A stretch of DNA of 64,000 nucleotides from Gemmatimonadota bacterium (GTDB taxonomy: Bacteria > Gemmatimonadota > Gemmatimonadetes > Gemmatimonadales > GWC2-71-9): assembly GCA_036679645.1 (NCBI GenBank), contig JAZDCY010000016.1:37377-101376 (forward strand), in the 5' to 3' direction. The translations under genes and the position numbers were made by a program. Below are positions 1,668 to 59,624 of the stretch, in pieces (the first letter of the stretch is position 1; every line of letters begins with the position of its first letter). A model generated the notes under the pieces. It was given only the letters and a program-made list of their open reading frames with translations. It was not told the DNA's origin and ran no database searches.

Positions 1668-1718
1668 TCACACGATAGCCATCGCGTCGCCGTAGTTGTA
1701 GAGGCGATATCGCTGAGC
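1668..1718. repeat. Left att-like direct repeat: displaced copy of the queA 3' end
   Basis: tcacacgatagccatcgcgtcgccgtagTtgtagaggcgatatcgctgagc matches 17466-17516 at 50/51 positions (1696 T vs 17494 C). Similarity continues to 1725 with third-position changes. Confidence 0.93.
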
Positions 1719-1727
1719 GACCGCCAT
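1668..1727 (-). CDS. Putative 19-aa mini-ORF (MAVAQRYRLYNYGDAMAIV) formed from the displaced queA tail, coupled to tgt
   Basis: ATG at 1727 is in frame with TGA at 1670-1668, one base before the tgt ATG. Weak SD-like AGGT 9 nt upstream. Translation is unproven. Confidence 0.45.
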   Translation of the reverse strand: MAVAQRYRLYNYGDAMAIV

Positions 1728-1743
1728 GACCGCCCAACCTGCG

Positions 1744-1966
1744 GTTTCAATCCACGCCCGCGCGCGAGCGGGCGACCTGGGTCTTCGCGTGTGTCTACAC
1801 GCTGATGTTTCAATCCACGCCCGCGCGCGAGCGGGCGACCTCGACATTCTGAGCAACGCACTAACGACGTTTCAATCCACGCCCGCGCGCGAGCGGGCGA
1901 CTCGGACATGGCGCGCGTCGTCGATGTCCTCGCGTTTCAATCCACGCCCGCGCGCGAGCGGGCGAC
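1744..1966 (-). CRISPR. CRISPR array with 4 identical 33-bp repeats (GTCGCCCGCTCGCGCGCGGGCGTGGATTGAAAC) and 3 spacers
   Basis: Repeats at 1744-1776, 1807-1839, 1869-1901 and 1934-1966; spacers of 30, 29 and 32 nt. 7-bp stem CGCCCGC/GCGGGCG and 11-nt 3' tag ending ATTGAAAC, typical of I-C repeats. Confidence 0.98.
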
Positions 1967-2148: not shown

Positions 2149-2439
2149 TCAAATAATCAGCGGTCCCTCCAGATCGACGCTCGGCTTCGCGCCGTGATGC
2201 TCCACCCGATGACGCCAATTCCTTCCCAGGAAGTAGAACCGCAGGCTGTCTTCCTCAGGTCGATAGAGATCGAGCAGACGCAGTTTGAACTGCGCCCACT
2301 GTGTCGGGTCGAGCTGGCACTCGAATACCGAGTTCTGCACCCGTTGGCCAAAGCCGACGCAGGTCTTCGCGACGTGCCTGAGGCGTTTGCGGCCCTCCCG
2401 GGTTGTCGTCGCTACGTCGTACGTCACCAAGACAAACAC
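2149..2439 (-). CDS. cas2: CRISPR-associated endoribonuclease Cas2
   Basis: [30 protein letters not shown]; I-C-like sequence. Confidence 0.97.
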
Positions 2440-2454
2440 AATGGCGTCCTCCGG

Positions 2455-3486
2455 TTACTTCCACACGAACGCCGGATAGGCATCGAGATCGCCGCGGAGT
2501 AGCCGCGCCAGGAGCCGCGCCTGCAGGTGGATCAACAACCCTACCGTGGTTTGCTCGCCCAGGAAGGGGTGTGTGATCTCATCCTGCTTGCGCTTCTGAT
2601 ACGCGATCAGAACCGTCTTTCGCGTGTCCTCGGACATCTCGACTCCACCGGATTCCGTCTTGCGGAAGCCCTTCGCGTGGACCTGCTGGCGGTTGATGAG
2701 CGTGAGGGCGAGCCGATCCGCCAGGAACGGTCGGAACTCCTCGATGAGATCGAGCGCGAGTCCGGGTCGGCCTGGACGGTCGCGGTGGAGGAAACCGACC
2801 TGGCTGTCCAGCCCGGCCGCCTCACAGGCGGCTCGCGCATCGTGCCCGAGCATGGCGTACAGGAACGAGAGCAGCGCGTTGACCGGATCCAGCGGCGGCC
2901 GGCGGTTGCGCCCGGTAAACGCAAAGCCGTCGGGCTGCCCAGTGATCAGGTGGCCGAACACGGCGAAATAGATGCTGGCGCTCTCCCCCTCGATCCCGCG
3001 AATCAGGTCGAGCCGGTCCGCCGCCTGGACCTGTTGGATGGTGTGGGCCAGACGCGCCGCCGCCGCCTGCACAGCCGCCCGACCTTGGCCCTCTGGATAG
3101 TCTCGAACGCTCCGGAGCAGCACGGTCCGTGCGTTCGCGACCTTCGCAGTAACGAGATTCCGCGCAATGACGGCGCTCCGAGACTCGTCGTCGGCGCGGC
3201 GGTACTGCTCGCGACGCAGCAGGACGTTGCCGGGTGTGAAACCGAGCACGCGGGCAAGGAACTTCCCCTGCTCGCTCAGGAACGAGATGGCGATACCCCG
3301 TTCGGCGCACGCGTGCATTAGCCACGGGCTGATGTTGACGAGACCGAAACACACGATCCCGCCGAGCGTGTGGAGCGGCAGCTGAAGGCGGGTCTCCTCC
3401 CCGAGTTTTACCTGGAGTGCCTCCCCGTACTTCGAGACGTACGCGCCTTGCGTCGTCACGAACAGGGTATTCAGGTGCTGCTTCAC
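2455..3486 (-). CDS. cas1: CRISPR-associated endonuclease Cas1 (I-C type)
   Basis: LNTLFVTTQGAY, IRGIEGESA, RNRRPPLDPVNALLSF, GFLHRDRPGRPGLALDLIEEFR. Confidence 0.98.
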   Translation of the reverse strand: MKQHLNTLFVTTQGAYVSKYGEALQVKLGEETRLQLPLHTLGGIVCFGLVNISPWLMHACAERGIAISFLSEQGKFLARVLGFTPGNVLLRREQYRRADDESRSAVIARNLVTAKVANARTVLLRSVRDYPEGQGRAAVQAAAARLAHTIQQVQAADRLDLIRGIEGESASIYFAVFGHLITGQPDGFAFTGRNRRPPLDPVNALLSFLYAMLGHDARAACEAAGLDSQVGFLHRDRPGRPGLALDLIEEFRPFLADRLALTLINRQQVHAKGFRKTESGGVEMSEDTRKTVLIAYQKRKQDEITHPFLGEQTTVGLLIHLQARLLARLLRGDLDAYPAFVWK

Positions 3487-4169
3487 GGTGTCGCGCCTTT
3501 TGCCTCATCGAGCGTGACGCCGACGGCGCGGGCGAGGTAACGGGCCGCCGAGCCGCGGGCGCGCCCCATAGCATCGGGGAGGCATATGTGGAGCAGGGAG
3601 CAGCGGTCGCATTTGGGCTCGCGTCGCGCCCGCGGCGTGCGGCGCGACGTGATGAGTTCGTGCAGGCGCGCGGCCGTTCCCTCGGTCAGGCGTCTGAGCG
3701 GAGCGTCAAAGGTCACGTCATGGCGCTTCCGCGTGCGGCCGTAGTACAGGGCCCCAGCCGGAACCTCGGTGTGCAGCATGTCTTCGAGGCACAGCGCTTG
3801 GGCACACAGTTGCACCTTGTCTGCCTCGTGGCGCTTGGGACGGCCGCGTTTGTACTCGACGGGGAACACAATCTGGCTGTCGCCAGCCGCGCGGAACTCG
3901 ACTATGTCTGCCTTGCCCACGAGGCCCAACCGGGTCGATCGAAGCGCCAGGCCCCGCGTGACGCGAACGCCCGACCGGGTCTCGGGCCGGCCGTCGTGCG
4001 CCTTGTCGTGCATATGACGCCCCTCGACGGTCAGGCGGTTCTCGGCCCAGAGGCCCTCGATGTGGATCAGGGCGCACTGCCGCTCGCAGAAGAGCAGGTG
4101 TTGGAGGGCGGAGATGGGGAGGAGGTCGTCCTCGGTGAAGCCTGCTTCCGCCCCACCCACAGGGGTCAC
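3483..4169 (-). CDS. cas4: CRISPR-associated protein Cas4
   Basis: ISALQHLLFCERQ, GKADIVEF, PVEYKRG, QLCAQALCLE, CDRCSLLHIC (Fe-S Cys cluster). Confidence 0.97.
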   Translation of the reverse strand: MTPVGGAEAGFTEDDLLPISALQHLLFCERQCALIHIEGLWAENRLTVEGRHMHDKAHDGRPETRSGVRVTRGLALRSTRLGLVGKADIVEFRAAGDSQIVFPVEYKRGRPKRHEADKVQLCAQALCLEDMLHTEVPAGALYYGRTRKRHDVTFDAPLRRLTEGTAARLHELITSRRTPRARREPKCDRCSLLHICLPDAMGRARGSAARYLARAVGVTLDEAKGATP

Positions 4170-4579
4170 GGACGGACTTCTCCAGGCAACTCCGCGAGAA
4201 TCGCGTCGTTGAGACGCCGTGCCAGTGCCAGCGCCGCGCGCGGCTCATCCGGAGCCGGCTCGGCGGGCTCTCCCGGGTAGCGGAACTTCCAGGCGTAGTC
4301 GGTAAGGCCTCCGCTCTCGCGGATCACCTGCTCGAGGTCCGGCGCGATCTCAAGCACCTGGCGCCCCAGATCGGCAATGTTGTGCGTCTTCCGAAAGATG
4401 CGTCCGTGCCACGTGAGGAAGCCTTTGAGCGCCTTCTCGGCAGCCTGCTGGCAATGGAACAGGGCGTCTCCCGCAAGTGGCGGTTCGACGTTGCTGATGA
4501 GCTCCGCGGCGCGCAGGTCGTTCGCCGCCTTGATCAGCCATGCGCGGGTCTCGGCAACGAACTCGGGATCAAGCGGCAT
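4166..4579 (-). CDS. HEPN domain protein (COG2250-like)
   Basis: AWLIKAANDL, FHCQQAAEKALKG, KTHNI, KFRYP. Start MPLDP at 4579 overlaps the MNT stop; its own stop overlaps the cas4 start (GTGA). Confidence 0.88.
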   Translation of the reverse strand: MPLDPEFVAETRAWLIKAANDLRAAELISNVEPPLAGDALFHCQQAAEKALKGFLTWHGRIFRKTHNIADLGRQVLEIAPDLEQVIRESGGLTDYAWKFRYPGEPAEPAPDEPRAALALARRLNDAILAELPGEVRP

Positions 4580-4925
4580 GGAGCAGCTTCCCTTCGCGCA
4601 AGACGGTCGCTGGGAGAGAGGCGGGTACGCGTGTGCGGCGATCGAACGCGGTGCTGGTCCACACGATGACATCCGCCGCTGTCCCGATCCCCCACAGCGC
4701 TTCGTGGGCCAGCCGGGTGCCCCGCCGGTCCGGTGTAGCGTCGTCGGGCACGATCACCATGAGATCGTAGTCGCTGTCCGCGTCGGCGTCGCCGCGGGCT
4801 TTGGAGCCGAATAGGTAGACGCGCTCCGGGTCGTATGCGTCCACGAGGCGGCGGACGATCTCGGCAAGCGCCGGATCGCGGTCTGGGAGCTGGCCCGTGG
4901 GCCTTCCCTGAGACTCAGGCATCAT
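4569..4925 (-). CDS. Minimal nucleotidyltransferase (MNT) domain protein
   Basis: VYLFGSKARGDADADSDYDL (GSx10DxD) motif; directly upstream of the HEPN gene. Confidence 0.9.
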   Translation of the reverse strand: MMPESQGRPTGQLPDRDPALAEIVRRLVDAYDPERVYLFGSKARGDADADSDYDLMVIVPDDATPDRRGTRLAHEALWGIGTAADVIVWTSTAFDRRTRVPASLPATVLREGKLLHAA

Positions 4926-4981
4926 GAACGATCATCTTGCCGGAAGGCACGCGATAGTTGACCAGGCGTACTCGGAAGCAC

Positions 4982-7127
4982 TCACACTACCCATGCGCTC
5001 GTGTCCTTCTGGCTCAGCAAGTGTTCCTGCCGCAGGACGCCAGCCATGTAACCGAGAAAGTCGGCCTGGTACTCCAAATCGCCCAGGCCGTATAGCCCCA
5101 GGCCCCGATCGTAGCGGTCGGTGTGAAGCTTATCAAGCCCGAGGTCGATGATCCGCCCAGGCCACATCTGGACACTGTAGGTCAACAATTCCGTCGGTGA
5201 GATTTTCTTTCTGTTCCGCACTGCCTGTGCCAGGCCTGCATCTACAATGACTGTCGCCGTCTGCTGCGGGATAACGCGGCAGAGGTGCGCGACTCCCCGT
5301 CGGCAGTGGCCGTGGGCATATGGTCGGTACTCCATGCGGTTCTCATCCTCGATCAGTTTGCGCGCTTGGTCCTCAGCGCCAGCCGTCCATTCCTTCCGCA
5401 TGGCTTCCGTCGCGAGCCAGGTTGTTCCCAGCTCGGGATCGTTGAGTTGGCTCCTACTGATGCGGTGGAGTGCTCGCCGAGGCACCTCGAAGGCAGGATT
5501 TCGTCGGAAGCGGGCGTCGCGGAGTCGAAGGTCCCAGACCTCCACCTCCTCCGCGTACTCGCCACCCCGGTTGACTCGACCGCCGACCTGAATCAGGCTG
5601 GCGGTGGACGCCGATTCCCGGAAGCCGGTACGGAACGACAAGTCCATCCCGGCTTCTACACAACTGGTTGCCACAAGGACCCAGTCATCGATCTTCCCTT
5701 CCTGCAGGCGAAGCTTCATCCGCTTCACAACCAAGTCCCGATGAGCGGGCGCAAGAGCAGTCGAAAGATGTAGCACGTCGTGGCCGGCTAGGCGCATCGC
5801 TCGTGCAACTACCGCGGCCGTCTGCACGGTGTTGACGACGAGTAACCGCGGACCAGGCTTCTCCGACACGAACTTCAGAAGTCCGTCCAGGTCAAGAGCC
5901 GGCTCCAGTTCATCCTGATCGGCTTCATTCTGGCCCGCTTTGGTAATCCTGCGCTCCACGCGGACGCGCCGACCTTCCGCTCGTCGGAGCTCGTCCCTGA
6001 GCTGTCTGTTGCCTACGAGATCCGGCACGGGCGGCATTCGCTTCTCGGATCCCGTTCGGATCAGCTCCCGGTACTCGGGAAGCTCCCAAAACCGCGGCAG
6101 CGAGCCGCTAGCGAGTACAAGGTGCCCACCCCAGTCGTCTGTCCACGTCTCCAGCCATCGCCACACCTGTGGCCAGAGGTGCGAGGGCATAGCCGCGTGC
6201 ATCTCGTCCACGAAGACGGCCGATCCTGGCAACTCGTGCAGCTTTCGCAACCGGGCTGGATGATGGCTGCCCAGGGTTTCGAAGAATTGCACCGCAGTCG
6301 TGACAATGATTGGCGCCTTCCACAGCGTTGCGAGTTGTCGCAGCTCCAAGTCCTCGAAGTCGGCCCGGTGGTGATGCTCGGCGACCACGTCTTCCGGGCG
6401 CTCACCCTCCAGCACCAATGCCTTGCGGTACACGTCCACAGACTGTGTGATGATGTTCGTGTACGGCAGGACGACAACGATGTGGCGCAACTGAGGTTTT
6501 CCTTCGGTCGCCACGCGCAGGAGGTGGGCCATTACTGCCGTCGTCTTGCCGCTCCCCACCGGAGCATCGCAGGCACGGATCGCTGGCTCAATCGCGGCAT
6601 CCCGGCAGGCTTCAAACACCCGTCGGCGCGCTTCATTCCGCTGCTGTTCTCGTGGTTTCTTTCCCTTCGGTAACCCGTCGACGTACCGCTGCAGTGCCGC
6701 CGCGCGCTCATCCCATCGGGTCTCGATGCCCGGCGTCTCGACCTCACCGCCATAGTGCCGTGCCGTGTCACCATGGTCAGCGTCTACGAGGCACGATAGG
6801 GCCAATCGACGGGTAAAGCCGCACGGCTGCAATGCCTTCGGTTTAGCCTTCGGTAACTCCGGACAGCCAGCCGAACGGTGGAGATTCCGATACCCGTCGA
6901 GTCGGCCTTTCGCATCGACGTGGTCCGCTACAACAAGACCACCTGGGGTCTCGCGCCTTAACTGGCGGAACGGTCGCCCCTGTGGTTCAAGGAAATCCTC
7001 CTTCAGACTGAACAGCCCGGCATGATGAGCGGCGACTAACGCTACCGATTCCTGCCAGTTAAGGCGATCCAGTTCGGCCACGCCTGCGTCCTCATGCGCA
7101 ATCACTAACCGTTTGCGTGAACTCTGC
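4982..7127 (-). pseudogene. cas3: cas3, 3' part (distal HD motifs plus SF2 helicase), IS-interrupted
   Basis: IAHED, AAHHAG, LVDADH, APVGSGKT (Walker A), FVDEMH (DExH), LSTAL, QVGGRVNR. Joins the 5' part in frame once the IS is removed. Confidence 0.93.
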
Positions 7128-7266
7128 TGCGGATTTCGGACCCATTCGGACACCTGTTTCGGAATCATCCGGACACCCATTTCGGTTTTATCCGGACACC
7201 TGTTTCGGAGCCATCCGGACACCCATTTCGGACATTCGGACACCTGTTTCGGAGATGTCGGACACC
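7128..7266 (+). repeat. IS21 left-end subterminal repeats
   Basis: CGGACACC core at 7147, 7170, 7193, 7216, 7237 and 7259 (21-23 bp spacing), mostly followed by (TG/CA)TTTCGG. Confidence 0.9.
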
Positions 7267-7334
7267 TTCGCTGAGGGAGTGGGCGCTGGATAACTGAGGC
7301 GGATTCGGTCTCACTTCAGGGACTTTTCCCCGGA

Positions 7335-8990
7335 GTGATGCTGATGCCCGCTCGGAGGTTGTCCATGCGCAAGATCGTAGACCTGCTGCGGTTGCAGGCG
7401 GAGGGGCTGAGTGTGCGGCAGGTGGCCGACAGCTTGGGCCTGCCGCGCAGCACCGTGGCCGACTACATGGGCCGGCTGAAGCGGGCCGGGCTGACGTGGC
7501 CGCTGCCGGATGAGGCGGACGAAGCGGAGCTTCTCGAGCGGCTGTTCGGCGCCGAGCGCTCTCGGGCTGGTGAGCGGCCGATGCCGGACTGGGCGACGGT
7601 GCATGCCGAGCGCAAGCGACCGGGTGTGACCCTGCACCTGCTGTGGCTGGAGTACAAGCAGGTCCATCCCGAGGGGTATCAGTACACTCAGTTTTGTGAG
7701 TACTACAAGCGCTGGCGTGCGCGGCTCGATCCCGTTTTACGGCAGGCCTACAAGGCGGGAGAGAAGGTGTTTGTCGACTACGCCGGTCAGACCATGCCCG
7801 TCGTCGACGGCGAGACCGGCGAGGTGCGGCAGGCGCAGATCTTCGTCGGGACCCTAGGAGCGAGCAACTACATCTATGCCGAGGCCACGTGGACGCAGCG
7901 CCTGCCCGATTGGACGGCCGCGCACGTGCGGATGTACGAGGCATTCGGAGGTGTCCCGGCCCTGACGGTGCCCGACAATCTGAAAACAGGCGTACGGCAC
8001 GCCTGCTACTACGAGCCGGATCTCAATCCCACATATCAGGACCTGGCCACGCACTACGGGACGGCGGTGCTGCCGACGCGGGCGGCCAAGCCCCGGGATA
8101 AGGCCAAAGTGGAGACCGGCGTGCAACTGGTGGAGCGCTGGTGCCTGGCCCCACTCAGGAACCACACCTTCTTCAGCCTCGCCGAGTTGAATTGCGAGCT
8201 GCGGACGCATCTCGACACCCTCAACGAGCGACCGTTTCAAAAACTGCCCGGTACCAGACGGCAGCTCCTCGAGACGCTGGAGCGGCCGGCCTTGAAACCC
8301 TTGCCGCCGACGCCCTTCGAATACGCCGAGTGGAAGAAGGCCCGCGTCAACATCGACTACCACGTCCAGGTCGATAGCCATCTCTACAGCGTCCCCTACA
8401 TGCTCGTGCGTCAGGAAGTGGACGTGCGCCTCACGGCGAAGACGGTAGAGGTGTTGCACCGCGGCAAACGCGTCGCGGCCCACCGGCGTAGTCATCGTCC
8501 GGGCCGCTTCACTACCGAGCCGGGCCACCGTCCCAAATCCCACCAGCGGCATCTCGAGTGGACGCCATCGCGGCTGATACGCTGGGGAGCCACGCTGGGG
8601 CAGCACACCGGCGAACTCGTTGCACACATCCTCGAGAGCAGACCCCATCCCGAGCAGGGATACCGCGCCTGCCTCGGCCTCCTCAGTCTCGCGCGCAAGT
8701 ACGGCCCGGAGCGAGTCGAAGCCGCGTGCACGCGCGCCCTGCGCACTCGGGCAACGACCTATCGATCCGTGAAATCGATCCTCGAACATGCACTCGATCG
8801 TCTGCCGTCCGAGGAGGAGCAGATCACCCTGTCGCTTCCCGCCGACCACGCCCATGTGCGCGGGTCGACCTATTACGCCACGCTCACTACAGCAAACCAT
8901 CGACCGCATGCACGAACTGCGATTGACGGGCATGGCCCAAGCCCTCGACGAACAACGGGGCCAACCCGATCTGCACGACCTCGCCTTTGA
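7335..8990 (+). CDS. istA: IS21 transposase IstA
   Basis: HTH start, GEKVFVDYAG, VPDNLKTGV, PRDKAKVETGV (DDE). Start may be 7338 or 7365; the C-terminus reads past the usual stop position. Confidence 0.93.
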   Translation: MMLMPARRLSMRKIVDLLRLQAEGLSVRQVADSLGLPRSTVADYMGRLKRAGLTWPLPDEADEAELLERLFGAERSRAGERPMPDWATVHAERKRPGVTLHLLWLEYKQVHPEGYQYTQFCEYYKRWRARLDPVLRQAYKAGEKVFVDYAGQTMPVVDGETGEVRQAQIFVGTLGASNYIYAEATWTQRLPDWTAAHVRMYEAFGGVPALTVPDNLKTGVRHACYYEPDLNPTYQDLATHYGTAVLPTRAAKPRDKAKVETGVQLVERWCLAPLRNHTFFSLAELNCELRTHLDTLNERPFQKLPGTRRQLLETLERPALKPLPPTPFEYAEWKKARVNIDYHVQVDSHLYSVPYMLVRQEVDVRLTAKTVEVLHRGKRVAAHRRSHRPGRFTTEPGHRPKSHQRHLEWTPSRLIRWGATLGQHTGELVAHILESRPHPEQGYRACLGLLSLARKYGPERVEAACTRALRTRATTYRSVKSILEHALDRLPSEEEQITLSLPADHAHVRGSTYYATLTTANHRPHARTAIDGHGPSPRRTTGPTRSARPRL

Positions 8991-9654
8991 GGACCGGCTC
9001 GCCCTGCTCGTGGAACGCGAAGCCACCGCCCGGGCCGATCGCAGATTGACCCGGCTGCTGCAGCTCGCAAAGCTGCGTCTCCAGGCGAGCGTCGAAGAAC
9101 TCGACTTCAAGACCCCTCGTGGACTCGATCGCTCGGTCATGTTACGGCTCGCTGGCTGCGACTGGATCCGCCAGCATCAGGTCGCCCTGCTCATCGGAGC
9201 CACGGGCACGGGCAAGACCTTCATCTCCTGTGCCCTCGGCCACAGTGCCTGTCGACAGGGACTGCGGGTGCGCTACGTCCGGCTGCCTCGTCTCTTGCAC
9301 GACCTGGCGCTCGCCCAGGCCGACGGCTCCTACGGCAAACTCTTGACCGCCTTAGCGAAGACAGAACTCTTAATAATCGACGACTGGGGCCTGGCACCGC
9401 TCGGTGATCGCGAACGCCGTGACGTGCTCGAAGTCATCGAAGATCGCTACGGCCGCCGGGCCACGATCGTGACCAGCCAGCTCCCCGTCGAGCACTGGCA
9501 CGAACTCATAGGGGACCCCACCTTTGGGGACGCGATCCTCGACCGCCTCGTGCACGGTGCACATCGGATCACGCTGAAAGGCCGGTCGATGCGCCGCAAG
9601 GAAACGACCAAGAAGGAAACGAAGAAGAAACCGACAACGAAAGAAGGAAACTAG
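8908..9654 (+). CDS. istB: IS21 AAA+ helper ATPase IstB
   Basis: GATGTGKT (Walker A), LLIIDDWG (Walker B), TSQLP, AILDRLVH. The first in-frame ATG after the istA overlap is 8908. Confidence 0.93.
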   Translation: MHELRLTGMAQALDEQRGQPDLHDLAFEDRLALLVEREATARADRRLTRLLQLAKLRLQASVEELDFKTPRGLDRSVMLRLAGCDWIRQHQVALLIGATGTGKTFISCALGHSACRQGLRVRYVRLPRLLHDLALAQADGSYGKLLTALAKTELLIIDDWGLAPLGDRERRDVLEVIEDRYGRRATIVTSQLPVEHWHELIGDPTFGDAILDRLVHGAHRITLKGRSMRRKETTKKETKKKPTTKEGN

Positions 9655-9677
9655 GCCAGCACCCACACCTCGGTGTC

Positions 9678-9772
9678 GGTGTCCGACATCAGCCGAACGG
9701 ACTGTCCGACTTCAACCGAACCAGGTGTCCGACATCAACCGAACTGGGTGTCCGGATGCACCGAAATCCGCA
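9678..9772 (-). repeat. IS21 right-end subterminal repeats
   Basis: GGTGTCCG at 9678, 9724 and 9747, plus a degenerate copy near 9701 (23-bp spacing), inverted relative to the left-end units. Confidence 0.85.
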
Positions 9773-9999
9773 CTCTGCCGAAGTACCGCCTGATTAGCCT
9801 CGTCCAGTTTGCCGAGGTCGTGGTACAGCGCCGCCGCATCGACCCAGCCAATGAAGGCTTCCTGGTCACCGGCGTAAAACGCGACGGCGCGCTGAGCATT
9901 ACCCACCGTATCGCGACGGACATTGGTGACGTGCGCGACGTACGTCTGTGCCGACACGCCATCCCGCCGGCTATGTGCTAGAGGCGGATCGCTCGACAT
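9773..9999 (-). pseudogene. cas3: cas3, 5' part (proximal HD nuclease motifs)
   Basis: MSSDPPLAHS...YVAHV...AALYHDLGKLDEANQAVLRQS, then the IS right end. Confidence 0.92.
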
Positions 10000-10009
10000 C
10001 GCCGCTGCC

Positions 10010-11017
10010 TTACAGGAGCTGGCTGCACCACTCCGGCAGTTCGACACACAGGTCATACAGCTTGGCGTTCCTCAGGACGCCGTGGAAGTCATTCGGCAGC
10101 GCCCTGGGCACATCGTACTGATCGGTGAGTGGAACTTGGTCCGTTGACGGCGGCATTCTCTCGTCGTCCCTGGGTTCCCACTTCCGTTTCGGGGTGAGCT
10201 TCTCGATGAATTCGAATTCCGAGAATGAGCCGAGGCTGTATTCGCTGCCTGGCTCGTTCTCGTGCTCGGCGTACCAAGCATGGCGAACGTCAACCATGCC
10301 ACGTGGCGCGGACCGAGTATGCGGGTACGCGTAGCGGATCAGGCCCAACATGAGCGCGATGTCTTTCGCAGTACAGCCACTGTTCCTGGCGGCCGTCGGG
10401 TTGACAAAGAAGGGCATGCAGTAGACACCGTGCTCGACGATTCGACTTGCCAGCGGCGCCATGCCGCGATCCTTCGACTCCTGAGCGCTAGCCTTCTTTG
10501 TGAGGGTGTCCCGAAGCACTCGCACCGGAGCGGCCGATACGCCGATCGGAAAATGCGCGACGCCAGTGCGGATGTACTTGCGGTCACCAGCGGTGCTGCG
10601 CCTCCCGCCCTCAGGTGCGTCCTCGCCCTTCTCAAGAAAGGTGGCTCCGAAGGTGCGAGCGTCCCAGTACTTGTTCGCCACCTTGTTGGGGTCCTCATCG
10701 ATGAGTTCAACGACTCTCTTCCAGGCTTCGGCGGCTTCCTTGACGTCAGCGAAGCCGCGCTCACGGGATTCGAGAATGGAGAACTCATCGTCATTCAACC
10801 GAAACTGACTCTTCAAGTGCTGCCAGACGTCGCCATCCTTCTGCTCTACCAGATCCCGCATCTTGCGCTTGAAAGACACCCCCGTGATGTATCCACGTCC
10901 GTCGTGATTTCGCTGGCGCGGGTCGCTCTCGCGATCCGGGTCGCCGTTGGGGTTCGAATTCCGCACCTCGATAACCAGCAGGCCGGTGGCTCGGGCAATA
11001 CCGTGCTTCGCGTTCAT
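10010..11017 (-). CDS. cas7: Cas7 (Csd2/I-C family, divergent)
   Basis: EVRNSNPNGDPD, ITGVSFKRKMRD, YWDARTFG. Confidence 0.93.
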   Translation of the reverse strand: MNAKHGIARATGLLVIEVRNSNPNGDPDRESDPRQRNHDGRGYITGVSFKRKMRDLVEQKDGDVWQHLKSQFRLNDDEFSILESRERGFADVKEAAEAWKRVVELIDEDPNKVANKYWDARTFGATFLEKGEDAPEGGRRSTAGDRKYIRTGVAHFPIGVSAAPVRVLRDTLTKKASAQESKDRGMAPLASRIVEHGVYCMPFFVNPTAARNSGCTAKDIALMLGLIRYAYPHTRSAPRGMVDVRHAWYAEHENEPGSEYSLGSFSEFEFIEKLTPKRKWEPRDDERMPPSTDQVPLTDQYDVPRALPNDFHGVLRNAKLYDLCVELPEWCSQLL

Positions 11018-11436
11018 TGCGTACTGTCCTTCCCGTTTTGGCCATGTTTCTCATCCGGCGGTGAGGCGAGGAACCCGAGAAGGAGCTGGGCCTTCGCTAC
11101 GTCGTCTACCTCGATCGGCAGGTCGGCGGCGCCGAGTGTGGCCGCGAGCGGCTGGTACTGCCGCAGCTTCTTCCTAGCCTCATTGACGGCGATCCGTTGC
11201 TGCTCCCTTTCCTCGCCCTGTGGCGTCTGGGCCGTCTTCGCCCACCGCACGTACTCCATCATTCGTTCGCCGAGGTCGGCAACCGCGGCCGCGGGGTTGT
11301 CCAGGGCTCGGCGCATCAGGGACGTGCCGATCAGGGAATTGGGCAACTGGCCCTTGCGAACAACGGTGCAGTAGTCCTTGTGCAGTGTGTCGGCCAGCGC
11401 CAGGACCTGGCCAACCTGGTACGGCGCATTCTTCAT
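11014..11436 (-). CDS. cas11: Internally translated small subunit Cas11c (140 aa)
   Basis: AAAGGAG SD 6 nt before an in-frame ATG (MKNAPYQVGQ) in the cas8c 3' part. Internal Cas11 translation is established for I-C systems. Confidence 0.75.
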   Translation of the reverse strand: MKNAPYQVGQVLALADTLHKDYCTVVRKGQLPNSLIGTSLMRRALDNPAAAVADLGERMMEYVRWAKTAQTPQGEEREQQRIAVNEARKKLRQYQPLAATLGAADLPIEVDDVAKAQLLLGFLASPPDEKHGQNGKDSTQ

Positions 11437-13227
11437 GTACTGCTCCTTTCGATGGCCGAGGGCGTCGAGCAGGATCGCGGAAACGGCTACCGCCCGCAGT
11501 GCTACCTCGTCTGAGAACCGTGCGTAGTCAGGTCGTGCTCTGTGCTTCTTCTGAGCCCTCAGGGGTCCGTAGGCGTGCTGGGCGCCGAAGACGCCGATCA
11601 ACAGCGGCGTGAGACGCCGGACAAGCATCCTCAGCATCGACCGCGCTGCTGGCTCCCCCTTGCCCTCTGTTCCAAGCATCACGTCGAGCACCTCGCCGAG
11701 CCCCGGCCCGACGACCGCCGCCGACTCGCTGCCACCACGCGCCCACTGATGCGACAGCAGCCGCACCACTTGGTCCGGATACGGTGGGAACGGCTGACCC
11801 TCGCCTGCCTCCAGTTTCTTCCCGTTTCGCGTCTCTTCAGGCAACCACAGCCGCACCTGCGGGGCATTTCGCTTCACCGCCTCAACCCACTTCTGAGCCG
11901 CGTCCAGCACTTGCTGAACGGTTGGTGATTCGGCTAAGACGACCTGAGCTTGTCCCTTTGACATCTCCCTGATCACGAATAGCTGAAGGCGTGACTTCGG
12001 GTGTTGCCTCGCAACCCCCTTCAACGCTCGGACCAGAGCGGCGGCATCGACTTCGAATCGTTGTTCGTCCACACCCATTCCGCCACCGATGTATCGTGCG
12101 GTGTTGGCGTCAAGAGCAGGAGAGTCTTCGACGTAGGCGATAAGTACGTCCGGCTTCTCGACCTGCTGGCCCCCTGCCGATTCGAACCGGCTGCTCCCGA
12201 CGAACTCCCAGGTCTGGCCTTGGCGAGAATCAGCGGTGATGAACTCGAGTGCTTCCTTCAAACAGTCAGCGCGGGCCTTGGCAATGGTGCAGCGAGCTGC
12301 GCTGAACATCGAGGAAAGCGGAAAGCGCTTTCGTCCGATCTTTTGCTTCCTCATGGAATAGACAGGAAGGTCGATCTTTGGAAGCGTTTCCCGCTCGAGG
12401 GCGGCCGCTTCACCAGTGAGCGCATCGATACCAACCGTCGCGCTGTCCTTCTGGGTGTGCGAGTGCTTCCACGTTGGCTCGCGTGGCAGATGCTCCCTCA
12501 GCAAGTTGCCAATCCTCTCGCTGTAGAGAGGATGACTGAACAGATTGGGGTCGCTCACGTCAAATGCCAGTTGGACGGTCATCGTTGGGCGGCGGCCGTT
12601 TTCATCGGGCGGGCCTTTTCCTACGAGCAGCTGTTCGACCTGGTCGATGGCGGAGAGCGTTCCTTGCTTGAGCCCTGCAAGGGCGACCTCGCCGATGCTG
12701 GAAAGTAGCGTGTCGGGTTGCTGCGCCGCGATCACAAAGCGTTTGCCAAGTGCTGCAACGACCTGGCCCTGGTCGTTCATCTGTTGAGCGCACTTCACCA
12801 GTTCGTTGGCCTTGCGGTCTCGGAGTCGGACCCACAGGTCCTGCGTCCTTTTGGACCAGAGACACACGGATCCCTTCTGTGACGCTTCCTCCAGAGTCGT
12901 GACACGCCGAGCATCATCCAGAGTTCTACGCCGTCTCTGATGCTTGTCGAAGCCAAGCTCTTGCCAGACATCGGCAGAGACCTCCGAGAGTGGCTGCTGC
13001 ACGCGAACGACGGGAAAGCTGTTCTGGTTACCTTCCATCACAGTCCACGACGGCCAGTCCTCGTGCGTTACTTCTTCAATCGCCACTACTTTGCCTTGAC
13101 TGTTCAGCCTGACGCGCAGGCATGGCGCTGAGCGACCGGGTTCTGGAACGCGCCTATGCTTCCGTTCTAGCCGAAGCGAGGGTGTTCTTTCCAGCGCCTG
13201 CCAGAGCCGCCATGTCTCATTGAGCAC
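11014..13227 (-). CDS. cas8c: Cas8c-like large subunit (divergent)
   Basis: 737 aa between cas5 and cas7, MLNE start, C-terminal NAPYQVGQVLALADTLHKDYC helical region. Call rests partly on position. Confidence 0.8.
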   Translation of the reverse strand: MLNETWRLWQALERTPSLRLERKHRRVPEPGRSAPCLRVRLNSQGKVVAIEEVTHEDWPSWTVMEGNQNSFPVVRVQQPLSEVSADVWQELGFDKHQRRRRTLDDARRVTTLEEASQKGSVCLWSKRTQDLWVRLRDRKANELVKCAQQMNDQGQVVAALGKRFVIAAQQPDTLLSSIGEVALAGLKQGTLSAIDQVEQLLVGKGPPDENGRRPTMTVQLAFDVSDPNLFSHPLYSERIGNLLREHLPREPTWKHSHTQKDSATVGIDALTGEAAALERETLPKIDLPVYSMRKQKIGRKRFPLSSMFSAARCTIAKARADCLKEALEFITADSRQGQTWEFVGSSRFESAGGQQVEKPDVLIAYVEDSPALDANTARYIGGGMGVDEQRFEVDAAALVRALKGVARQHPKSRLQLFVIREMSKGQAQVVLAESPTVQQVLDAAQKWVEAVKRNAPQVRLWLPEETRNGKKLEAGEGQPFPPYPDQVVRLLSHQWARGGSESAAVVGPGLGEVLDVMLGTEGKGEPAARSMLRMLVRRLTPLLIGVFGAQHAYGPLRAQKKHRARPDYARFSDEVALRAVAVSAILLDALGHRKEQYMKNAPYQVGQVLALADTLHKDYCTVVRKGQLPNSLIGTSLMRRALDNPAAAVADLGERMMEYVRWAKTAQTPQGEEREQQRIAVNEARKKLRQYQPLAATLGAADLPIEVDDVAKAQLLLGFLASPPDEKHGQNGKDSTQ

Positions 13228-13900
13228 GGTGTACCTCCGGCGGCGTCGGGTGCTCGTAGGACATCACCCCGTTGACGATGCTCCAGTTCTGCTTAAAGGC
13301 GGGGTTCAGTTGACGGCGCTCCCACATCGAATGCAACAGAGATGGTATGATGTCGTTGATGCTCGCCTCCGGTGCGGTGCCTTCGCGGAACGTGCCGAAG
13401 TAAGTGGGGACGAACTCCTTCCATCCCAGACAAGGCGTGTAGAACGTCTGTCCGTGTGTCAAACGCTTCTCAAAAAGTCGCTTCAGCTCTGGTGCCCAGT
13501 CCTTTCCACGGCGGCGCCTCAACTGGGGACGGTCCTTTCCAACGGTGCTGCGCTTGACGCGCATCACACCATAGATGCGGTAGCAGACGTCCACGAGAAT
13601 AGTCGCGTTGAGCTGGTAATTGTTGTTCCTCCTGATTTGGTCCTGCTTACGAAGGGGGCCACCGTAGTTGGTCACGTAGCGCTCGTATCTGATCGGGCAG
13701 CAGATTTCTACACGGGTCGGGTGGATGTACGCGTGGGGCCGCCAAACCACTGCGTCAAACATTCCCCTGGCCGCCGAATACGTGGGCACTGGATACGAAA
13801 TCGGCGTTGCCCCGGTATCGGGCCGCGTGAACATTGCCGCCGGGCCAGCGACCTCAAGTTGGACTACGTATTGAGTGTCGCTCCGGGACGGGTTCGGCAC
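13217..13900 (-). CDS. cas5: Cas5 (I-C-like, divergent)
   Basis: LEVAGPAAMFTRPD, SYPVPTYSAARGMF, ILVDVCYRI, PCLGWKEF; AGGAG SD before GTG 13900. Confidence 0.92.
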   Translation of the reverse strand: MPNPSRSDTQYVVQLEVAGPAAMFTRPDTGATPISYPVPTYSAARGMFDAVVWRPHAYIHPTRVEICCPIRYERYVTNYGGPLRKQDQIRRNNNYQLNATILVDVCYRIYGVMRVKRSTVGKDRPQLRRRRGKDWAPELKRLFEKRLTHGQTFYTPCLGWKEFVPTYFGTFREGTAPEASINDIIPSLLHSMWERRQLNPAFKQNWSIVNGVMSYEHPTPPEVHRAQ

Positions 13901-14143: not shown

Positions 14144-14497
14144 TCAGGTCTCTTCAGTGGGCTCCGACAACAGCGCGCCCGTCCGCTCGACCAGGCCGGG
14201 GAGTTCATCGCTGATGACCTGCCAGACAATCTCGTGGTCCAGCATGTCGTATCCGTGAACCAGGATGTTACGAAAGGCCACGATGCGGTCTACCTCACCG
14301 GCCCGCGCTGCGATCTCGGGAGTCATTCGATGTAGCCGGTTCATCGCTTCGCCGATGATCTGGAGGTTGCGCTCCACCGCCTGACGCACCAGCCGGTTCT
14401 CCAGATACTCGGCCAGCGACGACTGCGCCGTGGCCTCGAGGACAAACGAGCCGGCGTCGCGGACGTCTTCCAAGAGCTTCAGCGCCTCAGGCTGCAT
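14144..14497 (-). CDS. HepT-like RNase toxin (DUF86/HEPN)
   Basis: AVERNLQIIGEA and the Rx4H motif FRNILVHGY; start MQPE overlaps the MNT stop by 11 nt. Confidence 0.9.
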   Translation of the reverse strand: MQPEALKLLEDVRDAGSFVLEATAQSSLAEYLENRLVRQAVERNLQIIGEAMNRLHRMTPEIAARAGEVDRIVAFRNILVHGYDMLDHEIVWQVISDELPGLVERTGALLSEPTEET

Positions 14498-14795
14498 ACA
14501 ACTCCTGGCGGCTCCGCTCGACTGCCGCAATGAAGTACGGGTTTCTCAACGACCGGCGCGTGAGGAGATCGACGTCCCGGGCAAGAAGTTCCCGGAGCCC
14601 GTCCCAGAGACCGAAGTATTGATCCGCCAGCGTCATCTCCCCGGTATGCTGGAACTCCACCAGGAGATCCAGATCACTGTGGTCGGGGTCGAACGCGCCA
14701 GTGGTCGCCGAGCCGAATACGTCGAGCCGAGAAACGTGGTAGCTGCGGCAGAGCTGCTGGATGGCCGCCTGGTTCTGCTCAAGCAATGATATCAT
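14487..14795 (-). CDS. MNT antitoxin (MntA-like)
   Basis: LDVFGSATTGAFDPDHSDLDLLVEF, DVDLLT, LRNPYF. Confidence 0.9.
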   Translation of the reverse strand: MISLLEQNQAAIQQLCRSYHVSRLDVFGSATTGAFDPDHSDLDLLVEFQHTGEMTLADQYFGLWDGLRELLARDVDLLTRRSLRNPYFIAAVERSRQELYAA

Positions 14796-15182
14796 CTGCT
14801 CTTGCCTCGCAGCTGTGGGACACCCGCCCCGAGCGGACCCGAAGAGACACCGAAGCGCCGACCTTGGCAAGGTGTCTCATTCCGCCCCCTACGCGAGTTG
14901 GCAACACCGTCACGAGCGTGCCAATACGGCGCTGCATCCAAGGCGCTCTCCCTAATTTCCCCTCCCGCCGCTCCCGCCCCACCACGCCCCGCGCCCTCCG
15001 CCGCTCGGTGTCCTCCAGGGATTCGTAGGCGTAGTTGTTGAGAAAGCTCTCCAACAGCTCGAGCTCCACCCGTGCACGTCGCGCAACTGCCGGATGGTCG
15101 GATCCGCGATCGTCGCTGTAGCGCCGGCGCGCCGTCTACCAACTGCCATCGGGATCTCCCTCCGTCGTTTCCGCCGACCTAA

Positions 15183-15494: not shown

Positions 15495-16262
15495 TCAAGC
15501 CACCCCGAGCGGATCCACAGGCACAACCTGCCCCACGCTATCCAGATGCCACCGGCCCCCCTCCGCCAGTAACGTGCACCAGAGGTCCCAGCCCCTCTCC
15601 AGCAGCGCGCCGGCCCGCACCGGCACCTTGATCGGGCCGTAAAGAGCCGGCTCCTGATACCGCGGCCGCAGCCACAGCAGCCCGGGCTCGATCCGTGTTA
15701 CCTCAAAACAGGTATGCTCCGCGTCGGCGTCGAGGTCCCACACCGGAGCGCGCCCGCGGCACGCGCGAGCCAGTCGTTTCTTAGCCCGCTCGGCCCGGAG
15801 CAGTTTGCCCTGAAGACGGCGGGCCAGCCGCGCTATGTCGGCCGCCACTGTTGCATCCACGTACCCCTCGTCCGCTAACCACAGCGCAAACTGCTCCAGC
15901 TCCGGTAGCAGCTCGGGCGTCTGCCTCAAGTGAAGCAGCATGGTGTCGCCCAGCCATGAGATCACAAACTCCCGCAGCACCGTCGGCAGGTGTTCGCGGC
16001 CGACGCTCTCGCCGCGCGACGCCCGTGCATCCCCTGGTTGCCTCGTGGGGTGCCGCGCGTGTATCTGATGCTCGCCGCAACTCGGCTGCTCCAGTCCGGG
16101 ATCGGCGTCGTGCAGATAGATAGAGAGCGCAGCACAGAGCTGGGTCGCATCGCGGCCCTGTCCAGAGGCCGCCAGCTCATACGCGGCGCCGATTTCGTCG
16201 ATCGTGGGCGATGCCCCCTCCGGGACCGGAGGCTGAGCGACGCCGCGATTCCAATACATCAC
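15495..16262 (-). CDS. Hypothetical protein
   Basis: 255-aa ORF with a protein-like C-terminal beta region (FEVTRIEPGLLWL...GPIKVP...GRWHLDSVGQVVP); family not recognised. Confidence 0.65.
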   Translation of the reverse strand: MMYWNRGVAQPPVPEGASPTIDEIGAAYELAASGQGRDATQLCAALSIYLHDADPGLEQPSCGEHQIHARHPTRQPGDARASRGESVGREHLPTVLREFVISWLGDTMLLHLRQTPELLPELEQFALWLADEGYVDATVAADIARLARRLQGKLLRAERAKKRLARACRGRAPVWDLDADAEHTCFEVTRIEPGLLWLRPRYQEPALYGPIKVPVRAGALLERGWDLWCTLLAEGGRWHLDSVGQVVPVDPLGVA

Positions 16263-16292: not shown

Positions 16293-17294
16293 CTAATGGT
16301 CCGCCCGGCCTCCGCTCGCACGCCCCTCCTCAACCAGCTTGATCCGCCGTTCCCGAGGCCCGAACGCCGCCGGGAACCGCACCACCCGATCGTACAGCGG
16401 CGCCCGCCGCATCATGTGCTCGTCGTCCGCCGGCGCGTCTGGCCCCCAGCTCTCGGCTTCCGATGGCCATTCCTCGATGAGCCCCATCGAGGCGAGCGGG
16501 ATCAGGAAGCCGAGTTCCACCGTGGTGCCAACCAACCAGGGTGGGACGTCCTGCACGTCCCTCGTCCACGGAGGCGAGAGCATGAGGCCCAGCTCGGCGG
16601 GAATCCACCAGTTCCCGTCCACCTGTCCGAGACCCCACATCTCGTAGGCCTCGCCGCCCTGGTGCATCACTGGCCCTTCAGGGAGCGGAAGCAGCAGCGT
16701 GTCCCGCACGTTTGCGTTGCGGAACAGCGCGCGGAGCAGCCGCGTGTAGAGGGATCCTGCGCCTTCGGGCGTGGCCAACCGCCGGCCCAGTGGGGTCAGC
16801 TCGTAGCTCCCAGTGCGCACCCGCAGACAGCCGAGATAGCGGGCCGTCTCCCGCATCTGCGTAACCGGCAACCACTCCTCGCCGCGCATCCAGGGGGGCT
16901 CCTCGTCGTCCTCCAGCAAGTCGGCATCCTCCGGTCCTGGCGGCGGGGCGCTGCGCGACCAGAGGCGCTCGCCGAGGGTGGAGGCGAAGTGGCCCTCGAA
17001 CGTCCCATCGCGCCGCGCCGGTACGCGGCCCGCGTCGGCCAGGGCCAGGAGCAGCTCGCGCAAGTCGGCGAAGTAGCTCGCATCCCCCAGCTCGTCCAAC
17101 CGCACGTTGCGGTTCAGCCGCAGCGGTCCCCGCGTGTACCAGTCGCCGGCCAGCAACTTGCGGACCTCGGACGGCGACAGGCCGAACAGATCGGGACGCC
17201 GCGCGTAATCCTCGGCGTCCACCGCGGGATGGGAGCCGAGCTGCTCGAGTAACAGGCGGCTGTCGCGCGCTTGGGACGGGAAGGCGTGGCGCAT
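16293..17294 (-). CDS. Hypothetical protein
   Basis: ~333-aa ORF (start MRHAF assumed) with a wHTH-like YELTPLGRRL segment; family not recognised. Confidence 0.65.
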   Translation of the reverse strand: MRHAFPSQARDSRLLLEQLGSHPAVDAEDYARRPDLFGLSPSEVRKLLAGDWYTRGPLRLNRNVRLDELGDASYFADLRELLLALADAGRVPARRDGTFEGHFASTLGERLWSRSAPPPGPEDADLLEDDEEPPWMRGEEWLPVTQMRETARYLGCLRVRTGSYELTPLGRRLATPEGAGSLYTRLLRALFRNANVRDTLLLPLPEGPVMHQGGEAYEMWGLGQVDGNWWIPAELGLMLSPPWTRDVQDVPPWLVGTTVELGFLIPLASMGLIEEWPSEAESWGPDAPADDEHMMRRAPLYDRVVRFPAAFGPRERRIKLVEEGRASGGRADH

Positions 17295-17465
17295 TGCCCG
17301 TCGCACACGGGTCGCGGTGGTTGTACCGGTCCCGGCCCATCGCTCGTTTGACACGAAGGTGAATCTGCATCCCGAGACGTGCGGCCGAAACCCCAATTGG
17401 GCGCGTGTCGCATTTTGCGTGTTGCCTGTTGCACTTCTGCGGCACCCGCTCTGTAGCCCGACTCC

Positions 17466-17516
17466 TCACACGATAGCCATCGCGTCGCCGTAGCTGTAGA
17501 GGCGATATCGCTGAGC
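17466..17516. repeat. Right att-like direct repeat (3' end of intact queA)
   Basis: Matches 1668-1718 at 50/51 positions; identity stops exactly at the queA stop codon. Confidence 0.93.
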
Positions 17517-59303: not shown

Positions 59304-59624
59304 ATGGCAGCGAAACGGAAAGCGAAGAAGGCGGCGAGGAAGACGACGAAACGTCGTGCCGCCAAGAAGCGGACCGCAAAGCGGAAAACCGCCAAGCGGA
59401 AGACCGCCAAGCGGAAGACCGCCAAGCGGAAGACCGCCAAGCGGAAGACTGCCAAGCGGAAGACTGCCAAGCGGAAGACTGCCAAGCGGAAGACCGCCAA
59501 GCGCAAGACAGCCAAGCGCAAAACGGCTAGGCGGAAGACCGCCAAGCGGAAGACCGCCAAGCGCAAAACGGCTAGGCGGAAGACCGCCAAGCGGAAGACG
59601 GCGAAGCGCGCTAAGAGGCGCTAG
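59304..59624 (+). CDS. Histone H1/Hc2-like basic repeat protein (106 aa)
   Basis: GGAGAGG SD; 15 tandem (K/R)RKTA pentamers; no acidic residues. Confidence 0.85.
   Translation: MAAKRKAKKAARKTTKRRAAKKRTAKRKTAKRKTAKRKTAKRKTAKRKTAKRKTAKRKTAKRKTAKRKTAKRKTARRKTAKRKTAKRKTARRKTAKRKTAKRAKRR
59379..59603 (+). repeat. 15-bp coding tandem repeat x15 (consensus AAGCGGAAGACCGCC)
   Basis: Read directly from the sequence; units differ mostly at synonymous positions, plus two K-to-R changes. Confidence 0.92.

Follow-up and report, generated by a model that had tools for sequence, protein, structure and literature searches.

A divergent type I-C CRISPR-Cas locus with cas3 located between cas7 and cas4 in a Gemmatimonadota genome, and its relatives in other phyla

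The 64,000-nt stretch of Gemmatimonadota DNA analyzed in this work (hereafter, the window) harbors a CRISPR-Cas locus, whose genes are arranged on the minus strand, from 13900 to 1744, in the order cas5-cas8-cas7-cas3-MNT-HEPN-cas4-cas1-cas2, followed by the CRISPR array (Table 1). A previous interpretation made from the sequence letters and open reading frames (ORFs) alone (the sequence-only reading) had proposed the order cas5-cas8c-cas7-cas3-MNT-HEPN-cas4-cas1-cas2, and all these genes were found in that order and on that strand. The order of canonical type I-C loci is not the one of the window, where cas3 lies between cas7 and cas4. The location of cas3 downstream of cas7 had been recognized correctly in the sequence-only reading, while the assumption of a single, uninterrupted gene did not hold: cas3 is split by an IS21-family insertion sequence (IS), corresponding to the 2.7 kb that separate cas7 from the large cas3 ORF, a segment absent from that interpretation.

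The comparison of the window proteins with hidden Markov models (HMMs) of the CRISPR subtypes, which had been indicated as a check, showed that the adaptation module is of the standard kind and that the effector module is divergent. The stand-alone Cas4, Cas2, and I-C type Cas1 constitute the type I-C adaptation gene set; Cas1 exceeds the cut-off of its NCBIfam model, and both Cas4 and Cas2 match well. Among the effector proteins, Cas5 and Cas7 are below the respective NCBIfam cut-offs and Cas8 has no NCBIfam or Pfam match, in keeping with the divergence suspected from their motifs; the PADLOC models assign Cas8 (Cas8c), Cas5 (Cas5c), and Cas3 (Cas3c) to type I-C. The two Cas5 motifs pointed out previously, TRPDTGATPISYP and TNYGGPLRK, are both embedded in the window protein, and the absence of cas6 was confirmed by a search of the whole genome with the Cas6 model PF01881, which gave no match.

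Table 1. Features of the CRISPR-Cas locus and of its surroundings (window coordinates).
Feature	Coordinates	Strand	Description
Left 58-bp direct repeat	1668..1725		Duplicate of the queA 3' end; 95% identical to 17466-17523
CRISPR array	1744..1966	-	Four identical 33-nt repeats GTCGCCCGCTCGCGCGCGGGCGTGGATTGAAAC (minus strand); spacers of 32, 29, and 30 nt
cas2	2149..2439	-	96 aa; TIGR01573 64 bits, PADLOC Cas2c 141 bits
cas1, I-C type	2455..3486	-	343 aa; TIGR03640 499 bits (cut-off 385)
cas4	3483..4169	-	228 aa; TIGR00372 128 bits, PADLOC Cas4c 283 bits; GTG start
HEPN	4166..4579	-	137 aa from ATG 4579; PF05168 61 bits
MNT	4569..4925	-	118 aa; PF01909 39 bits, weak NCBIfam MntA match; presumed antitoxin
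cas3, 3' part	4982..7127	-	Codons 78-788: remaining HD domain, helicase, C-terminal domain; PADLOC Cas3c 274 bits
IS21-family insertion sequence	7128..9772	+	2,645 bp; istA 7335-8990, istB about 8788/8908-9654
cas3, 5' part	9779..10002	-	Codons 1-75; TIGR01596 and Cas3c N-terminal matches
cas7	10010..11017	-	335 aa; PADLOC Cas7 (I-B/I-C) 150 bits, TIGR02589 102 bits
cas8, divergent Cas8c	11014..13227	-	737 aa; PADLOC Cas8c PDLC01562 450 bits, full length
cas5	13217..13900	-	227 aa; PADLOC Cas5c 85 bits; predicted Cas5c fold without the Tyr/Lys/His triad
Second MNT/HepT-like pair	14144..14870	-	MNT 14870..14487, HepT 14530..14144; PF01909, PF01934; PADLOC PDC-S09 115 bits
Right 58-bp direct repeat	17466..17523		3' end of queA (17466..18521)

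Related loci and the histories of the two modules

The Cas8 protein of the window belongs to a family with 116 relatives (clusters at 90% identity), nearly all of them metagenomic and mostly labelled as hypothetical. A scan carried out on one genome per species disclosed 30 related loci in at least 10 phyla; their hosts include Thermodesulfobacteriota, Chloroflexota, Planctomycetota, Nitrospirota, Armatimonadota, Kryptoniota, Bacillota, Spirochaetota, Acidobacteriota, Caldithrix, and one Methanosarcinales bin, and one locus comes from an isolate, Syntrophorhabdus aromaticivorans UI. Mapping the window proteins onto these loci revealed the same order, cas5-cas8-cas7-cas3-(gap of 6 to 3,210 bp)-cas4-cas1-cas2, in every one of the 30 having sufficient length. 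The nearest relative, a metagenomic contig of 7.2 kb (L057), shares the gene order and 87% (Cas5), 85% (Cas8), 91% (Cas7), and 80% (Cas3) identity with the window. The ten canonical type I-C loci retrieved from the same phylum are all organized as cas3-cas5-cas8c-cas7-cas4-cas1-cas2. The variant Cas8 is present in one of the 401 sampled Gemmatimonadota genomes, i.e., the one under study, and the canonical Cas8c in 10 of them. The suggestion that the locus represents a distinct I-C variant is thus borne out by related loci that share its order and its divergent effector genes across at least 10 phyla.

Two of these loci show further peculiarities. In one of them, from a long-read metagenome-assembled genome (MAG; L026:9350-16411), all the cas genes of the variant cassette are broken up over several frames, as the result of either sequencing indels or the decay of the locus. 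In S. aromaticivorans UI, a tandem partial duplication (L006:17413-19828) comprises cas1, a cas2 fragment, a cas1 fragment (residues 62-343), and cas2.

The two modules of the window differ in their relationship with the ten canonical loci. The identity of the adaptation proteins is 52-68% for Cas1, 51-62% for Cas4, and 58-69% for Cas2, values that are not below those observed inside the variant family; the identity of Cas3, Cas5, and Cas7 is 22-32%. In the Cas3 tree, the variant sequences form a single clade (support 100) on a long branch, at about five substitutions per site from canonical Cas3. In the Cas1 tree, the sequences from variant and canonical loci are intermixed, and the window Cas1 is the sister of a Cas1 from the canonical locus of a genome of the same order (97/86). 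The monophyly of the variant Cas1 sequences was rejected by the approximately unbiased (AU) test (log-likelihood difference of 99.7, p = 0.0003). The separate phylogenies of Cas1 and Cas3 are therefore incongruent, the former being intermixed and the latter splitting cleanly by type, in agreement with the different histories of the effector and adaptation genes that the sequence-only reading had hypothesized. The module shuffling it invoked stands as a property of the whole lineage, and not as an event specific to this locus.

Traces of the replaced genes have also been detected. In 11 of 28 variant loci, a 5' stub of a canonical-type cas3 (the first 55-80 codons, 41-60% identical to canonical Cas3) is located just upstream of the variant cas5. 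The largest of these scars of the old cas3 belongs to a Phycisphaerae MAG, where a canonical-type remnant of about 450 codons, 51% identical to a canonical I-C Cas3, lies directly upstream of the variant cas5 (L004:5591-6979). No canonical cas3 stub was found upstream of the window cas5.

The exchange does not seem to stop at the boundary of the cassette, given that both the window and L004 harbor a Cas7 from one sub-clade and a Cas8 from another, and both reconciliations of the two trees were rejected by AU tests (p = 0.0008 and 5e-8).

The exchange of effector and adaptation modules is a general principle of CRISPR-Cas evolution in the classification of Makarova and Koonin. The variant loci conform to it in the incongruence of their effector and adaptation trees and in the remnants of replaced genes; they differ from it in that the exchange involves two deeply diverged cassettes of one subtype sharing the same repeat type, and in the recurrence of the break points, located inside the 5' end of the canonical cas3 and ahead of cas4.

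Overall, we consider it likely, with a probability of roughly 85%, that the window harbors a member of a widespread and deeply divergent sub-lineage of type I-C, in which the interference cassette and the adaptation genes are exchangeable modules, and that this copy is borne by an island and has its cas3 split by an IS.

Type I-C membership, Cas5, and the array

The profile of the variant Cas8 was aligned with that of canonical Cas8c, built from the ten canonical loci of the same phylum (hhalign: probability 91.7%, E = 7.7e-7, 371 columns, 18% identity), and about a dozen more distant members of the Cas8 family do match PF09709; the window Cas8 would be a Cas8c homolog lying outside the boundary of the curated family. 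It is known that Cas11c originates from internal translation within canonical cas8c (bioRxiv 10.1101/2020.04.18.045682). In the window cas8, an internal AAGGAG precedes by 6 nt an ATG at 11436, from which a Cas11-like product of 140 aa (11436..11014) is predicted. An internal start codon is present in all 26 full-length variant cas8 genes (ATG in 25, GTG in one), six or seven bases past AAGGAG(G), or AAGGGGG in three cases, so that 23 of the 26 have a strict Shine-Dalgarno (SD) sequence; the predicted products are 115-150 aa long. The site aligns with the AAGGAGG-ATG of canonical cas8c, and the window cas8 is likely to contain an internal start of the Cas11c type.

As for Cas5, the AlphaFold2 model (predicted local distance difference test score 80, predicted template modelling score 0.79) has type I-C Cas5c proteins as its 11 best fold matches in the PDB, with template modelling scores of 0.63-0.70, and the Cas5 proteins of types I-B and I-E rank below, suggesting a Cas5c fold. 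In Cas5c, a Tyr, a Lys, and a His form the site of pre-crRNA (CRISPR RNA precursor) cleavage, the Lys being invariant (PMC8524198). An alignment of 27 variant Cas5 sequences and 10 from canonical loci revealed V, A, L, S, or H at the Tyr position of the variant proteins; the separate alignment used for the structure was made without the L004 Cas5. Other residues are invariant only within the variant family, such as those of TNYGGPLRK and PCLGWKEF.

The closest solved relatives of the window Cas7 are I-C Cas7 proteins. Since a Cas8c homology, the internal start, the Cas5c fold, these Cas7 relatives, and the absence of cas6 concur, the system would work like a type I-C one; the gene order, the scores of the curated models, and the Cas5c catalytic triad are the features that fall outside the curated I-C definition. 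The comparison with the canonical I-C systems (Dvulg/Csd) of Desulfovibrio vulgaris, Bacillus halodurans, and Neisseria lactamica leads to the same picture. On the one hand, cas5, a divergent cas8c, cas7, an HD-fused cas3, a stand-alone cas4, cas1, and cas2 without cas6 are shared, together with a Cas1 recognized by the I-C model, 32-33-nt repeats of the type GTCGC...GCGTGGATTGAAAC, the Cas5c fold, and the internal SD sequence and ATG of cas8. On the other hand, the variant cas3 follows cas7 rather than leading the operon, variable cargo is located at the cas3/cas4 junction, Cas3, Cas5, and Cas7 are only 22-32% identical and Cas8 about 18% (at the profile level), the Cas5c triad is not conserved, and the curated models of Cas5, Cas7, and Cas8 are not passed.

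Some observations weigh against the assignment of the locus to a sub-lineage of type I-C with exchangeable modules. Cas5 scores 50 bits with TIGR01876 (cut-off 85) and Cas7 102 bits with TIGR02589 (cut-off 182), the NCBIfam and Pfam scans of the window proteins gave no match of Cas8 to TIGR01863 or PF09709, and the search of solved structures by sequence with the Cas8 family profile found no solved Cas8c. Moreover, neither Lys nor His is conserved where the corresponding helix of the variant Cas5 begins, and the predicted helix boundaries agree; because the triad is not conserved, the processing of the crRNA by Cas5 would be an assumption for the variant. Lastly, the naming of the Cas7 and Cas8 clades submitted to the AU tests followed the inspection of the trees, the canonical reference loci are ten and belong to a single phylum, and the genome is a MAG, 92.7% complete and consisting of 100 contigs.

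The array is consistent with the I-C assignment. The window repeat belongs to the canonical I-C class (32-33 nt, with a GC-rich hairpin and ending in ATTGAAAC), which is common to variant and canonical loci. The arrays of the variant relatives contain the canonical 32-nt I-C repeat GTCGC..GCGTGGATTGAAAC and spacers of 33-36 nt, and L046, a canonical locus of type I-C belonging to the same bacterial family, combines a 33-nt repeat with spacers of 30-32 nt. Since L046 matches the window in the length of its repeat and spacers, short spacers are not tied to the divergent effector, and the special crRNA length that had been raised as a possibility for the variant is not supported. None of the three window spacers matches another part of the genome, i.e., no self-targeting was observed; no degenerate extra repeats (CreR/CreA-like, searched by the conserved repeat end) were found beyond the four of the array, and the genome contains neither a second cas locus nor a second array. 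Clusters of GC-rich palindromes (CCCGGGCTGACGCCCGGGGTTTGGTCGAG...) with a CRISPR-like spacing are present on contigs C67 (15460-15900) and C78 (5030-5350); they were rejected as arrays and resemble repetitive extragenic palindromic (REP) elements.

A different explanation is that the locus derives from type I-B, or is intermediate between I-B and I-C, and has kept the ancestral I-B position of cas3, in which case it would merit a subtype of its own. Type I-B loci have the order cas6-cas8b-cas7-cas5-cas3-cas4-cas1-cas2, and the window shares with them the location of cas3 immediately upstream of cas4-cas1-cas2. The top PADLOC model of Cas7 is the one shared by I-B and I-C (150 bits vs. 102 for Csd2), the Cas3b models score well (218 bits vs. 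303 for Cas3c), and the curated I-C models remain below their cut-offs. The formation of a small subunit by internal translation of cas8 is a trait of type I-B as well (bioRxiv 10.1101/2020.04.18.045682). However, the whole genome is devoid of cas6, cas5 comes first as in I-C, and the fold and HMM matches of Cas5 are best with Cas5c. Besides, Cas8 matches the Cas8c model over its full length and no Cas8b model, the repeats, like Cas1, belong to the I-C type, and in the alignment the internal start for Cas11 coincides with the Cas8c one. A derivation from type I-B is, therefore, unlikely, though the variant lineage might preserve an ancestral, I-B-like position of cas3.

The interrupted cas3, the cas3/cas4 seam, and the island

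The IS located within cas3 belongs to the IS21 family, with an IstA carrying helix-turn-helix and DDE domains (helix-turn-helix, rve, and Mu-transposase C; PF00665, PF22483), an AAA+ IstB (PF01695, 255 bits), TG..CA ends, repeated subterminal sites (23-bp motifs at 7133-7253 and 9678-9758), and a target duplication within the 4-8 bp range. The two-gene structure, the ends, the multiple subterminal repeats, and the short duplication make it an ordinary element of its family, and only its location is noteworthy. The duplicated target, CTCTGC, is a perfect 6-bp direct repeat (7122-7127 and 9773-9778). The gene is interrupted after codon 77, within the HD nuclease domain, with codons 76-77 lying across the copy at 9773-9778; the 5' part, a short ORF just downstream of cas7, carries the first HD motifs (..LAHS.. 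and ..YHDLGK..). The in silico removal of the IS and of one CTCTGC copy restores an uninterrupted Cas3 of 788 aa, which matches the Cas3c model PDLC01765 without a break (model positions 9-579, 303 bits) and is collinear with the intact 788-aa Cas3 of L057. As in type I-C, the joined protein consists of an N-terminal HD nuclease fused to a helicase. Another, partial copy of the IS, 94% identical, is located at a contig end (contig C22). The insertion looks recent, since neither half of cas3 bears further damage.

Since the HD domain is bisected, both target degradation and primed adaptation would have been lost in this genome; the degradation of DNA has most likely ceased and the system is probably unable to interfere at present, although Cascade binding and naive adaptation may persist. 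The possibility that the system is still functional, as a Cascade-only device for gene silencing or regulation, or through a helicase fragment translated from GTG 7243 inside the end of the IS, would be in line with the integrity of cas5, cas8, cas7, cas4, cas1, and cas2 and with the open frame (7243..4982) running from the left end of the IS into the 3' part of cas3. Nevertheless, the first HD motifs are missing from this fragment, the array holds three spacers only, none of which matches the genome, and the identical duplications and undamaged halves speak for a recent insertion, probably not purged yet; we regard a functional system as improbable.

The junction between cas3 and cas4, indicated as a seam by the sequence-only reading, does contain variable cargo genes in the related loci. 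A gap of at least 370 bp separates the two genes in nine of the 20 related loci showing both of them, and eight of these nine gaps hold co-oriented genes, coding for Fic, RhuM-Fic, Bro-N, KilA-N with a ParE/antitoxin pair, an IS200-like transposase, and four-helix-bundle proteins. Hence, the seam is an insertion hot spot, of which the MNT-HEPN pair is a toxin-antitoxin-like cargo. Short duplicated 5' fragments of cas4 are located upstream of the cargo at L016:6612-6812, L016:8536-8655, and L023:6393-6572, which suggests that the insertions bring or regenerate a cas4 start.

In the window and in L057, the stop codon of HEPN overlaps the GTG start of cas4 (GTGA). The seam HEPN of the window has matches among the related loci only in L028 (37%) and L057 (47%); the L057 MNT is 64% identical to that of the window, so that the conservation of the pair is far below that of the cas genes. 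Since MNT-HEPN is shared with L057, the pair was already embedded in the operon of their common ancestor, and it is not the trace of a recombination event that created this locus, as had been surmised. In type VII toxin-antitoxin (TA) systems, the antitoxin acts enzymatically on the toxin and the HEPN protein carries an Rx4-6H motif. The seam pair resembles those of the HepT-MntA type in that its MNT gene precedes and overlaps a HEPN gene, whose product bears an R-x5-H motif (RIFRKTH in the window, RTFRKVH in L057, both R-x-F-R-K-x-H), and differs from them in being located inside a cas operon and in having a HEPN of the PF05168 rather than the HepT family. The MNT scores 35 bits with the MntA model (cut-off 60), with the domains and the R-x5-H motif being present, and the seam HEPN does not look obviously inactive.

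The second pair, directly upstream of cas5, is unrelated to the one at the seam. Two distant variant loci, L028 (7138-7777) and L030 (6602-7271), likewise possess MNT/HEPN or MNT/HepT pairs upstream of cas5, with 33-38% identity to the window ones, which hints at a recurrent association of such pairs with the variant loci.

A 15.8-kb block between the two 58-bp direct repeats comprises the genes of the CRISPR-Cas system, the two TA pairs, and two uncharacterized genes. The uncharacterized genes (16262..15495, 255 aa, and 17396..16293, 367 aa) are co-oriented, close to queA, and without matches in Pfam or PADLOC. Once joined, the flanks of the island align without interruption to a single stretch of two other genomes, one from the same genus, where the queA-tgt site is empty, and one from the same order, which leads to the conclusion that the adjacency of queA and tgt is the ancestral state. 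The neighbors of Tgt assign the host to Gemmatimonadota.

These data also bear on the idea, contained in the sequence-only reading, that the locus is a freshly assembled chimera, in which a foreign effector block was joined to a resident I-C adaptation module and MNT-HEPN was left as a scar. The window Cas1 is indeed the sister of a canonical I-C Cas1 of the same order, Cas7 and Cas8 are nearest to sequences from other phyla, and the TA pair lies precisely at the module boundary. Yet the order and the boundary are shared by the related loci and by L057, which already possesses cas3-MNT-HEPN-cas4 with the same GTGA overlap; the entire locus arrived as one island between the 58-bp repeats; and, unlike 11 of its relatives, it has no canonical cas3 stub. 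A locus-specific origin is, thus, largely refuted and very improbable. An assembly artefact (a chimeric contig or a misplaced IS), which the 100 contigs of the MAG and the IS copy at a contig end could evoke, is hardly credible given the perfect 6-bp duplication, the exact ORF restored by the removal of the IS, and the identical gene order in independent assemblies, one of them from an isolate.

Elsewhere in the window, a 15-bp tandem repeat (GACCGCCAAGCGGAA, 15.8 copies, 87% match) occupies positions 59372-59608 and probably encodes pentapeptide repeats.

A model for the variant lineage

If the locus is a member of a divergent I-C sub-lineage, its functioning may be outlined by comparison with type I-C. 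The array would be transcribed on the minus strand and cleaved inside the repeat; Cas5, Cas8, several Cas7, and Cas11 would assemble on a crRNA with a 5' handle derived from ...GGAUUGAAAC and a 3' hairpin; the resulting variant Cascade would recruit the HD-helicase Cas3, and Cas4-Cas1-Cas2 would capture new spacers. From an evolutionary viewpoint, the four-gene interference cassette and the module formed by the adaptation genes and the array would evolve as separate, exchangeable units. The cassette would have repeatedly displaced the canonical I-C interference genes ahead of a resident cas4-cas1-cas2, and cas7 and cas8 would have been exchanged within the cassette too. The cas3/cas4 junction would gather small cargo, represented in this sub-branch by MNT-HEPN, translationally coupled to cas4. 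Finally, the whole system would have come into the 3' end of queA on the 15.8-kb island, and the IS21-family element would have split cas3 later.

It is tempting to go one step further and to see in cas5-cas8-cas7-cas3 an "interference cartridge", which displaces the canonical I-C interference genes and reuses the resident I-C repeats, array, and Cas4-Cas1-Cas2 with a different chemistry of repeat-RNA processing, since its Cas5 lacks the Cas5c Tyr/Lys/His triad. The processing would rely either on residues invariant in the variant, such as the TNYGGPLRK loop, or on a host RNase, and the pressure of anti-CRISPRs on Cascade and Cas3 could be what drives the swaps. This idea is a tentative one, and we consider it more doubtful than probable.

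The lineage is already present, as I-C, in the PADLOC profile library. A literature search, with the main classification reviews lying outside it, found no paper on the gene order of the variant, on the exchange of the cassette, or on its Cas5; the full texts found on I-C variants concern only other subjects, i.e., I-U/I-G systems, phage systems, and Bacillus cereus. As for annotation, the curated models miss the variant Cas8, mostly recorded as hypothetical, and score Cas5 and Cas7 below threshold. The copy harbored by the window adds little by itself, being horizontally acquired, with three spacers and a cas3 broken by the IS21-family element.

Type I-C is a compact Cascade-Cas3 system and has been used to delete large stretches of genomes. 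A second I-C lineage, deeply diverged and with the same repeats, would provide an orthogonal set of Cascade and Cas3, and it may serve as a natural experiment on the Cas5 residues that crRNA processing really requires. In the evolution of these systems, the variant loci would clearly exemplify the joint replacement of interference genes ahead of an adaptation module that stays in place.

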